From the NCBI GenBank assembly GCA_964016885.1, contig OZ024743.1, forward strand, positions 305,598,001-305,662,000: a DNA stretch of 64,000 nt, read 5' to 3'. Under the pieces are notes generated by a model. That model searched no databases. It was not told where the DNA came from and saw only the letters and a list, made by a program, of their open reading frames with translations. Of this stretch, positions 25,047 through 61,513 are shown piece after piece. Numbering within the stretch: position 1 is the first letter of the stretch; every line of letters starts with the position of its first letter. Both the position numbers and the translations under genes were made by a program. Source of the DNA: Eledone cirrhosa. Taxonomy: Eukaryota.

Positions 25047-28000
25047 ACGTAAGTATGTATGTATACGTACATACATATATGTATACAGACGTACAGTAGC
25101 ATGCATATGTATATATATATATATATATATACATATATATATATACATACAGGTACACATACATAAATGCACGCATCATTTCATTTTCAATTTTTTTTCA
25201 ACTTATCGTTTTCGGTATGCCTGACCGATTTAACTCACTCAATATGCAAATTAGGCTGCTCAGCCGTTAATTTTCATAAGGAAAGTATATACTTTCTAAC
25301 GTTCAACTATCTGGCAGATGGGTAAACGGTGCTGATGATAGCTAACAAGCTTGAAACTAGTACATCGTTCCTGTGTCAGTGTTGAACAAAAAGGTGACGT
25401 GGTTGCCTTAACACCGTATGGCATAAATTCAGGCAGTTCAGTTTGTTGACAAACGAACAAAGCGGCGTTATAATAAGCGTCCGCTAAACTGATGCGTGCA
25501 TATATGTATGTGTACCTGTATGTATATATATATATATATGTATATATATATATATATATATATATATACATATATATATATATATATATATATATATATA
25601 TATGCATGCTACTGTACGTCTGTATACATATATGTATGTACGTATACATACATACTTACATTTAAGTAAGTGCCATACTAAGAGTGAGAAATGAAATTTC
25701 GTTTTCATTTTTTTTTTCAACTTATCGTTTTAGGTATGCCTGACCGATTTAACTCACTCAATATGCAAATTAGGCTGCTCAGCCGTTAATTTTCATAAGG
25801 AAAGTATATACTTTCGAACGTTCAACTATCTGGCAGATGGGTAAATGTTGCTGATGATAGCTAACAAGCTTGAAACTAGTACATCGTTCCTGTGTCAGTG
25901 TTGAACAAAAAGGTGACGTGGTTGCCTTAACACCGTATGGCATAAATTCAGGCTGTTCAGTTTGTTGACAAACTAACAAAGCGGCGTTATAATAAGCGTC
26001 CGCTAAACTGATGCGTGCATATATGTATGTGTACCTGTATGTATATATATATATATATGTATATATATATATATATATATAAATATATATATATATATAT
26101 ATATATATGCATGCTACTATACGTCTGTATACATATATGTATGTACGTATACATACATACTTACATTTAAGTAAGTGCCATACTAAGAGTGAGAAATGAA
26201 ATTTCGTTTTCATTTTTTTTTTCAACTTATCGTTTTCGGTATGCCTGACCGATTTAACTCACTCAATATGCAAATTAGGCTGCTCAGCCGTTAATTTTCA
26301 TAAGGAAAGTATATACTTTCGAACGTTCAACTATCTGGCAGATGGGTAAATGTTGCTGATGATAGCTAACAAGCTTGAAACTAGTACATCGTTCCTGTGT
26401 CAGTGTTGAACAAAAAGGTGACGTGGTTGCCTTAACACCGTATGGCATAAATTTAGGCTGTTCACTTTGTTGACTTACGAACAAAGCGGCGTTATAATAA
26501 GCGTCCGCTAAACTGATGCGTGCATATATGTATGTGTACCTGTATGGATATATATATATATATATATATATATATATATATATATATATATATATATATA
26601 TATATATATATATATATATACATATATATATATATATATGCATGCTACTGTACGTATGTATACGTATAAGTATGTACGTATATATACATACTTACATTTA
26701 AGTAAGTGCCATACTAAGAGTGAGAAATGAAATTTCGTTTTCATTTTTTTTTTCAACTTATCGTTTTCGGTATGCCTGACCGATTTAACTCACTCAATAT
26801 GCAAATTAGGCTGCTCAGCCGTTAATTTTCATAAGGAAAGTATATACTTTCTAACGTTCAACTATCTGGCAGATGCATAAACGGTGCTGATGATAGCTAA
26901 CAAGCTTGAAACTAGTACATCGTTCCTGTGTCAGTGTTGAACAAAAAGGTGACGTGGTTGCCTTAACACCGTATGGCATAAATTCAGGCAGTTCAGTTTG
27001 TTGACAAACGAACAAAGCGGCGTTATAATAAGCGTCCGCTAAAATGATGCGTGCATATATGTATGTGTACCTGTATGTATATATATATATATATGTATAT
27101 ATATATATATATATATATATATATACATATATATATATATATATATATATATGCATGCTACTGTACGTCTGTATACATATATGTATGTACGTATACATAC
27201 ATACTTACATTTAAGTAAGTGCCATACTAAGAGTGAGAAATGAAATTTCGTTTTCATTTTTTTTTTCAACTTATCGTTTTAGGTATGCCTGACCGATTTA
27301 ACTCACTCAATATGCAAATTAGGCTGCTCAGCCGTTAATTTTCATAAGGAAAGTATATACTTTCGAACGTTCAACTATCTGGCAGATGGGTAAATGTTGT
27401 TGATGATAGCTAACAAGCTTGAAACTAGTACATTGTTCCTGTGTCAGTGTTGAACAAAAAGGTAACGTGGTTGCCTTAACACCGTATGGCATAAATTTAG
27501 GCTGTTCAGTTTGTTGACAACCGAACAAAGCGGCGTTATAATAAGCGTCCGCTAAACTGATGCGTGCATATATGTATGTGTACCTGTATGGATATATACA
27601 TATATATATATATATATATATATATATATATATATATATATATATATATATATATATATATACATATATATATATATATATATGCATGCTACTGTACGTC
27701 TGTATACGTATATGTATGTACGTATATATACATACTTACATTTAAGTAAGTGCCATACTAAGAGTGAGAAATGAAATGTCGTTTTCATTTTTTTTTTCAA
27801 CTTATCGTTTCTCGGTATGCCTGACCGATTTAACTCACTCAATATGCAAATTAGGCTGCTCAGCCCTTAATTTTCATAAGGAAAGTATATACTTTCGAAC
27901 GTTCAACTATCTCGCAGAGGGGTAAACGGTGCTGATGATAGCTATCAAGCTTGAAACTAGTACATCGTTCCTGTGTCAGTGTTGAACAAAAAAGGTGACG

Positions 28001-31000
28001 TGGTTGCCTTAACACCGTATGGCATAAATTCAGGCTGTTCAGTTTGTTGACAAACGAATAAAGCGGCGTTATAATAAGCGTCCGCTAAACTGATGCGTGC
28101 ATATATGTATGTGTACCTGTATGTATATATATATATATATGCATGCTACTGTACATCTGTATACATATATGTATGTACGTATACATACATATTTACATTT
28201 AAGTAAGTGCCATACTAAGAGTGAGAAATGAAATTTCGTTTTCATTTTTTTTTTCAACTATCGTTTTCGGTATGCCTGACCGATTTAACTCACTCAATAT
28301 GCAAATTCGGCTGCTCAGCCGTTAATTTTCATGAGGAAAGTATATACTTTCGAACGTTCAACTATCTGGCAGATGGGTAAATGGTGCTGATGATAGCTAA
28401 CAAGCTTGAAACTAGTACATCGTTCCTGTGTCAGTGTTGAACAAAAATTTGACGTGGTTGCCTTAACACCGTATGGCATAAATTCATGCTGTTCAGTTTG
28501 TTGACAAACGAACAAAGCGGCGTTATAATAAGCGTCCGCTAAACTGATGCGTGCATATATGTATGTGTACCTGTATGTATATATATATATATATATATAT
28601 ATATATATATATATATATATATATATATATGCATGCTACTGTACGTCTGTATACATATATGTATGTACGTATACATACATACTTACATTTAAGTAAGTGC
28701 CATATTAAGAGTGAGAAATGAAATTTCGTTTTCATTCTTTTTTCAACTTATCGTTTTCGGTATGCCTGACCGATTTAACTCACTCAATATGCAAATTAGG
28801 CTGCTCAGCCGTTAATTTTCATAAGGAAAGTACATACTTTCGAACGTTCAACTATCTCTCAGAGGGGTAAACGGTGCTGATGATAGCTAACAAGCTTGAA
28901 ACTAGTACATCGTTCCTGTGTCAGTGTTGAACAAAAAGGTGACGTAGTTGCCTTCACACCGTATGGCATAAATTCAGGCTGTTCAGTTTGTTGACAAACG
29001 AACAAAGCGGCGTTATAATAAGCGTCCGCTAAACTGATGCGTGCATATATGTATGTGTACCTGTATGTATATATATATATGTATATATATATATATATAT
29101 AAATATATATATATATATATATATATATATATGCATGCTACTATACGTCTGTATACATATATGTATGTACGTATACATACATACTTACATTTAAGTAAGT
29201 GCCAAACTAAGAGTGAGAAATGAAATTTCGTTTTCATTTTTTTTTTCAACTTATCGTTTTCGGTATGCCTGACCGATTTAACTCACTCAATATGCAAATT
29301 AGGCTGCTCAGCCGTTAATTTTCATAAGGAAAGTATATACTTTCGAACGTTCAACTATCTGGCAGATGGGTAAATGTTGCTGATGATAGCTAACAAGCTT
29401 GAAACTAGTACATCGTTCCTGTGTCAGTGTTGAACAAAAAGGTGACGTGGTTGCCTTAACACCGTATGGCATAAATTTAGGCTGTTCAGTTTGTTGACAA
29501 ACGAACAAAGCGGCGTTATAATAAGCGTCCGCTAAACTGATGCGTGCATATATGTATGTGTACCTGTATGGATATATATATATATATATATATATATATA
29601 TATATATATATATATATATATATATATATATATATATATATATATATATACATATATATATATATATATATGCATGCTACTGTACGTATGTATACGTATA
29701 AGTATGTACGTATATATACATACTTACATTTAAGTAAGTGCCATACTAAGAGTGAGAAATGAAATTTCGTTTTCATTTTTTTTTTCAACTTATCGTTTTC
29801 GGTATGCCTGACCGATTTAACTCACTCAATATGCAAATTAGGCTGCTCAGCCGTTAATTTTGATAAGGACTGTATATACTTTCGAACGTTCAACTATCTG
29901 GCAGATGGGTAAATGGTGCTGATGATAGCTAACAAGCTTGAAACTAGTACATCGTTCCTGTGTCAGTGTTGAACAAAAAAGTGACGTGGTTGCCTTAACA
30001 CCGTATGGCATAAATTCATGCTGTTCAGTTTATTGACAAACGAACAAAGCGGCGTTATAATAAGCGTCCGCTAAACTGATGCGTGCATATATGTATGTGT
30101 ACCTGTATGTATATATATATATATGTATATATATATATATATATATATATATATATATATATATATATATATATATATATTTATAAATATATATATATAT
30201 ATATATATATATATAAACGTAAGTATGTATGTATACGTACATACATATATGTATACAGACGTACAGTAGCATGCATATGTATATATATATATATATATAT
30301 ACATATATATATATATACATACAGGTACACATACATAAATGCACGCATCATTTCATTTTCAATTTTTTTTCAACTTATCGTTTTCGGTATGCCTGACCGA
30401 TTTAACTCACTCAATATGCAAATTAGGCTGCTCAGCCGTTAATTTTCATAAGGAAAGTATATACTTTCGAACGTTCAACTATCTGGCAGATGGGTAAACG
30501 GTGCTGATGATAGCTAACAAGCTTGAAACTAGTACATCGTTCCTGAGTCAGTGTTGAACAAAAAGGTGACGTGGTTGCCTTAACACCGTATGGCATAAAT
30601 TCAGGCTGTTCAGTTTGTTGACAAACGAACAAAGCGGCGTTATAATAAGCGTCCGCTAAACTGATGCGTGCATATATGTATGTGTACCTGTATGTATATG
30701 TATATATATATATATATATATATATATATATATATATTTATATATATATATATATATATATATGCATATTACTGTACGTCTGTATACATATATGTATGTA
30801 CGTATACATACATACTTACATTTAAGTAAGTGCCATACTAAGAGTGAGAAATAAAATTTCGTTTTCATTTTTTTTTCAACTTATCGTTTTCGGTATGCCT
30901 GACCGATTTAACTCACTCAATATGCAAATTAGGCTGCTCAGCCGTTAATTTTCATAAGGAAAGTATATACTTTCGAACATTCAACTATCTGGCAGATGGG

Positions 31001-61000: not shown

Positions 61001-61513
61001 AGTGAGAAATGAAATTTCGTTTTCATTTTTTTTTCAACTTATCGTTTTCGGTATGCCTGACCGATTTAACTTACTCAATATGCAAATTAGGCTGCTCAGC
61101 CGTTAATTTTCATAAGGAAAGTATATACTTTCGAACGTTCAACTATCTGGCAGATGGGTAAACGGTGCTGATGATAGCTAACAAGCTTGAAACTAGTACA
61201 TCTTTCCTCTGTCAGTGATGAACAAAAAGGTGACGTTGTTGCCTTAACACCGTATGGCATAAATTCAGGCTGTTCAGTTTGTTGACAAACGAACAGAGCG
61301 GCGTTATAATAAGCGTCCGCTAAACTGATGCGTGCATATATGTATATGTACCTGTATGTATATATATATATGTATATATATATATATATATATGCATGCT
61401 ACTGTACGTCTGTATACATATATGTATGTACGTATACATACATACTTACATTTAAGTAAGTGCCATACTAAGAGTGAGAAATGAAATTTCGTTTTCATTT
61501 TTTTTTTAACTTA
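25047..61513 (+). repeat. Tandem satellite of ~71 units (455-690 bp; ~435 bp constant + variable (TA)n), each with a hammerhead motif
   Basis: The landmark CTCAGCCGTTAATTTTC and its minor variants recur from 25260 to 61096 (manual count 71). Units differ by scattered substitutions and by (TA)n length. Confidence 0.97.
25325..25369 (+). ncRNA. Minimal type-I hammerhead ribozyme, first copy of the array (last copy 61161-61205)
   Basis: Stem I AACGGTG/CATCGTT (7 bp, one G-U); CTGATGA at 25332-25338; stem II AGCT-aaca-AGCT; GAAA at 25353-25356; palindromic ACTAGT stem III; predicted cleavage after GUA (A25362). Confidence 0.85.

Follow-up and report, generated by a model that had tools for sequence, protein, structure and literature searches.

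Metazoan retrozymes without long terminal repeats (non-LTR retrozymes), described from coral, mussel, axolotl (Amex1 and Amex2) and newt (satellite 2), are non-coding tandem repeats with one type I hammerhead ribozyme per unit, a GC content below 50%, dispersed as well as arrayed copies, a self-paired predicted circular RNA and a co-occurrence with Penelope-like elements (PLEs; PMC7229834). According to a review from 2020, animal retrozymes lack any motif from which their helper could be recognised (PMC7761336), and the link to PLEs has so far been based on co-occurrence and homology. We analysed a stretch of 64,000 nucleotides from Eledone cirrhosa (hereafter the window; assembly GCA_964016885.1, contig OZ024743.1, positions 305,598,001 to 305,662,000, forward strand), in which an initial annotation had noted a 36-kb tandem array with a hammerhead ribozyme in each unit. 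The array belongs to a dispersed family, and the shape of the insertions of this family points to Penelope-type retrotransposons as the moving machinery. This insertion anatomy, overlooked in the initial annotation, is a more informative feature than the array. We consider it likely that the unit is a non-coding, non-autonomous retroelement, namely a non-LTR retrozyme, that is moved by PLE proteins.

PLE insertions are known for partial tandems, an inverted 5' copy, a tail at one end and microsatellite targets (Craig et al., 10.1101/2021.04.23.441226). Such a tail covers the interval from one internal start site of the reverse transcriptase (RT) to a second one and has been called unique to PLEs (PMC11167929). 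For the retrozyme, loci were mapped from the best matches to each of its two subfamilies, A and B, and from the first 30 matches on contig C1. They merged to 63 contigs with 68 insertion clusters, and after dropping eight clusters cut by an edge, 60 fully seen insertions were left. Two arms pointing apart, i.e. with an inverted 5' arm, were present in 46 insertions and a single arm in 14. The ends gather at two homologous sites, here termed S (short end) and T (tail end), that lie 60-64 nt apart. Both ends were located at S or T in 32 of the 46 two-armed insertions, and 30 of these combine one S with one T end (S+S 1, T+T 1; p = 1.2e-7). Furthermore, 89 of 94 S or T ends reach a (TA)n tract within 25 nt, compared to 11.8% of flank positions; because the ends lie in (TA)n, target site duplications are hidden. 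With its one-end tail, inverted 5'-truncated copy and partial tandems, the insertion anatomy is PLE-like.

Within a young insertion, the units are uniform: at C2:176.98 Mb, ten cores are identical and the four opposite them have one change each, and loci L077-80, L088-90, L013 and L014 give a similar picture. Older loci are of mixed composition. A young insertion can hold as many as 14 near-identical units, and each locus has its own haplotype. From this we infer rolling-circle copying of one template, with a uniform linear multimer as the alternative. The idea that higher-order repeats derive from multimeric circles cut only at intact cores was not supported, as the one suggestive locus (L036) is irregular.

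Three TA-targeting PLE families of the same genome (PLE1, PLE2 and PLE3) show the same two-end, TA-flanked pattern as the retrozyme and are candidate helpers. The PLE1 copy in the window (20317-23029) is a 5'-truncated PLE of the Hydra clade with an inverted arm, TA flanks, a tail at one end and hammerheads of its own at 20430 (-) and 22840 (+); Pfam models detected nothing in this copy, and the family is young, with intact frames of 893 amino acids. PLE2 is present in the window (63082-63782) as a palindromic end fragment with three hammerhead copies and an internal 116-bp duplication. A pattern search for its motif gave 11,234 genome-wide matches, and RT and GIY-YIG-like frames were found at locus L143. 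By our own reading of its motifs, PLE2 appears to be Neptune/Nematis-like, and its tail of 60 nt has the same length as the retrozyme tail. PLE3 is Hydra-type and has an 87-nt tail and 21,464 genome-wide matches. Of 56 retrozyme loci, 10 have a PLE3 at a distance of less than 3 kb, where 0.9 would be expected (PLE2, 3 of 56 with 0.6 expected), and the neighbours mostly share one TA tract between them. At one locus (L146:2900-7719, G000:C3), two subfamily B retrozyme units directly abut a 5'-truncated PLE3, with no TA in between; the joint piece is bounded by a retrozyme S end and, at its other side, by the tail end of PLE3. This single case is a candidate template-switch chimera. The 3' end of PLE3 (L147:1490-1545) is hammerhead-like with U.U at the stem II base, and among the first 100 matches, 95 have CAGAAGA instead of CUGAAGA; PLE3 is thus apparently a very successful PLE with an altered or dead hammerhead core. 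Several further PLE families with 35-55% protein identity to PLE1 were noted in a set of loci (L033:597-828, L030 flank, L065:571-689 and L012:2-940) that also includes a third retrozyme subfamily, described below.

The proximity of PLE3 could be explained by shared targets alone, and the unit itself showed no homology to the PLE 3' regions compared. Together with the abundant LINEs (long interspersed nuclear elements) nearby and a U-rich run just ahead of the tail end, this would suit a mobilisation by LINEs, as in an ordinary SINE (short interspersed nuclear element), or a DNA route via extrachromosomal circles or a Helitron-like mechanism, in which the likeness to PLEs would stem only from shared TA-rich sites. 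Yet one short and one tail end in 30 of 32 insertions is the PLE signature, and to our knowledge this rule is not expected from LINE, extrachromosomal-circle or Helitron-like routes. The one direct junction to a PLE without intervening TA also speaks against such routes, and we regard them as the most improbable of the explanations considered here. A tRNA-derived SINE was rejected as well, since no tRNA gene was found in the unit and its hammerhead strand has nothing closer to an A box than one loosely similar word and lacks a proper B box.

Genome-wide, the core pattern gave 28,412 matches in 3.0 Gb compared to 2 for the reversed control, and the exact core of subfamily A gave 10,203. Monomers, dimers and multimers are dispersed in the genome, and the best 40 of 588 scored candidates are 99-100% alike and spread over seven contigs. 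Subfamilies A and B are about 76% alike, and their ribozymes differ at N7, in loop II and in stem I, where the changes preserve the pairs. One more retrozyme subfamily, the third and a more divergent one, is represented in the set of loci given above for the further PLE families; it has C.A instead of U.U at the stem II base and a GUU cut triplet. The element belongs to a known class, the non-LTR retrozymes, in which it forms a new family, and it is not a lone satellite; the array is one locus of this family, which has more than 28,000 cores. Cores with a G5A change are rare (168 genome-wide vs 28,412 intact); a successful lineage of dead ribozymes was considered and rejected, as its abundance came from a query that itself carried G5A.

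Within the window, 71 copies of a 45-nt motif were found on the + strand between 25325 and 61161 (Hamming scan of the whole strand, at most 10 differences to the reference copy), with a spacing of 455-689 bp and a median of 504 bp. This agrees with the annotated 71 or so head-to-tail units of 455-690 bp. A regular expression detected 0 copies on the - strand of the window, but found only 60 on the + strand as it missed variants. Unit length varies because the internal (TA)n tract varies. The catalytic core (C3 U4 G5 A6 N7 G8 A9, G12 A13 A14, A15.1-U16.1, H17) is complete in 68 of the 71 units, the defects being C3U at 27393 and 34109 and G8A at 60157, and the palindrome ACTAGT is kept in all 71. 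In 40 units, the core is intact and both stem I (7/7) and stem II (4/4) are fully paired; 20 have one stem I mismatch and 8 a stem II mismatch. As a chance level, a core-only descriptor without stems was found in 47 of 20,000 shuffled units, and the 91-nt hammerhead region folds with z = -3.1. Pairing of the closing stems I and II was confirmed, except that stem II has a U.U mismatch at its base and stem I extends well past the 7 bp first quoted; helix III consists of one pair and a palindromic loop. Canonical animal type I hammerheads have been described with a stem I of 6-7 bp plus extensions, a 4-bp stem II, one or two helix III pairs and a palindromic loop (PMC4209133). By its predicted structure, the ribozyme is of this canonical kind with a weak palindromic helix III, and not the minimal PLE kind.

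The palindromic helix III and the U.U at the base of stem II weaken the monomer. In axolotl retrozymes, where each of the two features is known, such ribozymes are poor cutters by themselves and cleave well as dimers (PMC7229834). The computed energy of the active dimer fold is -38.4 kcal/mol, compared to -21.6 for two active and -32.4 for two open monomers, i.e. 16.8 kcal/mol better than two active monomers; an alternative dimer fold scores -40.7. In both units folded as a circular RNA, 64-73% of the bases are predicted to pair, with a z near -10, a value that the TA hairpin inflates; outside the microsatellite, one unit reached z -4.2. Head-to-tail non-coding repeats with a type I hammerhead each, dispersed multimers and a self-paired predicted circle fit the retrozyme class proposed at first.

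Covariation was assessed on 19 hand-picked rows (17 distinct) that are related, 11 of them from a core-fixing pattern and 2 of them 5'-truncated; in this set, 93.1% of the cells pair and 12 cells are double changes, values that 0 of 500 shuffles reached. Stem I pair 29-65, for example, is GU in 8 rows, UG in 4, AU in 2 and UA in 2. Stem II is uninformative because its pairs are invariant. Helices I and II are thus both predicted to pair, with covariation support in stem I, and in this alignment the pair-preserving changes show that the fold is under selection. Contigs from the public runs X1 and X6, which have no bearing on expression, vary within the ribozyme only in stem I, N7, position 10.1 and loop II, sparing the catalytic bases; run X3 gave one contig and X5 no cover.

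Taken together, movement by PLE proteins would probably proceed as follows. Read-through of tandem copies on the hammerhead strand would yield a multimeric RNA, in which hammerheads paired via the ACUAGU palindrome would cut after GUA and release unit-length RNA, as the predicted structure and the axolotl data suggest. A host ligase may then circularise this RNA, by analogy to published retrozymes. A PLE reverse transcriptase/GIY-YIG nuclease would nick (TA)n DNA and start copying at two internal sites 60-64 nt apart; rounds of the template would produce the head-to-head arms of identical units with one short and one tail end that are observed, the enzyme being presumed. Finally, at the present locus one insertion was enlarged to 71 units by unequal exchange, with a drift of about 1.5% per unit. 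A stronger version, which we put forward tentatively and think rather less probable than not, is that a genome-encoded, viroid-like circular RNA parasitises TA-targeting PLE proteins through rolling-circle, target-primed reverse transcription from two fixed starts, and that its own (UA)n lets each insertion plant new target sites, for the element as well as its helpers, and seed satellites. The enzyme of the Hydra clade, in view of the chimeric locus, or a Neptune/Nematis-like one, in view of the equal 60-nt tail, is a candidate helper for this. If true, the insertions would be a direct genomic record of animal retrozyme movement.

Several observations weigh against PLE-driven movement of a self-cleaving RNA. 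The remaining 14 of the 46 two-armed insertions have one end outside S and T (internal microsatellite 4, elsewhere 10). The unit shows no homology to the 3' regions (pseudo-LTRs, pLTRs) of the three PLE families (best E 0.054), and a homologous parent PLE was rejected among these families. The Rfam scan proposed in the initial annotation gave 0 matches at gathering thresholds; the best hammerhead match, Hammerhead_HH9 (RF02275, clan CL00010), is sub-threshold with 18.5 bits vs a gathering score of 52 (E 0.2), and the 78 matches listed by E-value are mostly microsatellite against microRNA models. The unit resembles Hammerhead_HH9 in its type I topology and extended stem I and differs in its score and short palindromic helix III, and the missed thresholds exclude membership of those Rfam families, not of the type I hammerhead class. 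In the predicted circle, the three core-adjacent stem I pairs have probabilities of 0.18-0.28 and helix III of 0, and 8 of 9 Xenopus retrozyme dimers remained uncut in vitro (bioRxiv 10.64898/2026.07.22.740005). Core conservation within the array is not distinguishable from neutral (2 alleles at 12 sites vs 0.43 per site elsewhere). Furthermore, for the anole PLE, uncut RNA is the main substrate, hammerhead mutations are without effect on insertion in vitro and RNA-seq ends were not found at the cut site (PMC11167929).

The anole data would also fit the same PLE machinery copying an uncut linear multimer, with the hammerhead being inherited, protein-assisted or regulatory and circles being side products or absent. 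Inverted arms and tails are possible without a circle, and the monomer fold is mostly off-pathway. However, up to 14 near-identical units with haplotypes of their own at each locus would be hard to obtain from 5'-truncating linear templates, and the pair-preserving changes show selection for the folded structure. We therefore consider a linear template unlikely, although less so than the LINE or DNA routes.

The history of the array itself can be read from its ends and units (Table 1). Since its left end is an inverted arm at S and its right end is T, both in (TA)n, the array is one insertion. The annotated start at 25047 holds for a tandem array only in part, as the first 134 bp (25045-25178) form the inverted arm on the - strand. 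Among units 2-9, six have identical counterparts in units 15-22; a repeat of units 34-38 is seen at 40-44, and the left junction including the flanking TA tract is repeated inside the array. The single insertion was thus later enlarged by DNA-level block duplication. Single units differ from the array consensus by a median of 6.5 of 437 bases, and this consensus is 0-2 mismatches from young dispersed subfamily A copies in 11 of 19 comparisons. Such closeness, and the 68 of 71 intact cores, would be expected from a functional master locus that is kept long for the supply of circular RNA or for a role in chromatin. The most common stem I variant of the array, AATGTTG, which 18 of the 71 units carry, is matched exactly 15 times in the genome and each time within the array, compared to 10,203 subfamily A cores; for this variant, the only private one examined, the array therefore left no daughters. 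In addition, the lack of significant core conservation and the block duplications that take in the insertion junction itself make a master locus highly improbable. We take the array itself to be, most likely, a passive by-product of satellite-like character, and the locus illustrates how one retro-insertion turns into a 36-kb satellite.

Table 1 Features of the retrozyme array and its flanks. Positions refer to the window.
Feature	Position	Strand	Remarks
Left (TA)n tract	24486..25044	.	Short end of the insertion runs into the tract
Inverted 5' arm	25045..25178	-	134 bp, piece of one unit, stops at the short (S) end
Direct tandem array	25179..61512	+	71 hammerhead units of 455-689 bp; 5'-truncated start, tail (T) end at 61512
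Hammerhead of unit 1 with extended stem I	25301..25387	+	Three more predicted helices past the core-proximal 7 bp
Type I hammerhead core, unit 1	25325..25369	+	Stem I 25325-31 with 25363-69; CUGAUGA 25332-38; U.U and 4-bp stem II with AACA loop; GAAA; palindromic ACUAGU
Predicted cut, unit 1	between 25362 and 25363	+	After GUA, by established hammerhead numbering
Internal (TA)n microsatellite	25498..25661	+	Self-complementary flanks; long predicted hairpin; ends at the S site
PLE-type tail	25662..25725	+	60-64 nt between the preferred ends S and T; in every unit
Internal repeat of left junction	30215..30350	-	Flanking TA tract and inverted arm; DNA-level duplication after insertion
Right (TA)n tract	61513..63081	.	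Tail end runs into the tract

A coding role of the array was rejected: open frames are microsatellite-driven, and the unit contains no RT or GIY-YIG frame. An LTR layout was not seen in the unit either, with no search aimed at a primer binding site or polypurine tract.

The family has in common with the retrozymes of PMC7229834 the traits listed at the outset, including a GC content below 50% and the co-occurrence with PLEs. In contrast to them, the present ribozyme combines the weak palindromic helix III of Amex1 with the U.U at the base of helix II of Amex2. Its unit is longer (421-689 bp vs 150-450), because of the internal (TA)n hairpin, and for retrozymes, insertions that are flanked by (TA)n and have an inverted arm and a tail were not found described in the literature available to us. 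Li, Clavereau and Pollet, who treat non-LTR retrozymes as PLE derivatives, define active retrozymes by two or more consecutive units with complete motifs (bioRxiv 10.64898/2026.07.22.740005), which is what the family shows. Its size and repeat number are within their range and the PLE link is common to both studies, theirs resting on co-occurrence and pLTR homology in Xenopus and ours on insertion anatomy. The length of the array, which had been thought unusual, is ordinary, as 62-mers in coral (PMC7229834) and arrays of 180 and 300 units with consensus lengths of 51-972 bp (bioRxiv 10.64898/2026.07.22.740005) are in print. Since the class is known as well, the array alone is ordinary.

Endonuclease-bearing (EN+) PLEs of the Hydra clade and of Neptune/Nematis-like type (10.1101/2021.04.23.441226; PMC11167929) share with the retrozyme the 5' truncation, partial tandems, inverted 5' copy, one-end tail, (TA)n targets and a hammerhead. 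In contrast, the unit of about 0.45 kb encodes no RT or nuclease, occurs in many copies per insertion and has a canonical instead of a minimal hammerhead, and its tail is 60-64 nt long compared to the 30-40 in print. In this literature, leaving aside supplements that may bear on novelty as well as Repbase and Dfam, no report of this family was found, nor were retrozymes described there as having inverted arms or tails or as targeting TA. What the family adds is a PLE tail signature borne by a non-coding repeat with a ribozyme, and a testable pair of RNA and enzyme. As this signature coincides with young, intact-frame candidate helpers in the same genome and exact predicted starts, retrozyme mobilisation and the role of the hammerhead can be tested in the published PLE in vitro assay.

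The surrounding region is a nest of TA-targeting elements, and TA-rich tracts of 0.7-2.6 kb lie beside PLE and retrozyme ends (17762-20333, 23029-23753 and 61513-63081). Two decayed LINE copies in tandem, presumably Tx1-like, are located at 3666-11751 and match RVT_1 and zf-RVT. A LINE 3' fragment on the - strand (24246-24486), which we take to be CR1/L2-like, contains a duplicated 20-mer with CTGATGA that the descriptor rejected as a hammerhead. At 15118 (-) there is a lone hammerhead-like motif of type I that belongs to a different family. Lastly, one array unit contains a perfect bacterial promoter consensus (25965-25993; 12/12 with a 17-nt spacer), which is probably a chance match because in subfamily B the spacer at this site is shorter and one base mismatches, but which may matter for cloning in E. 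coli.

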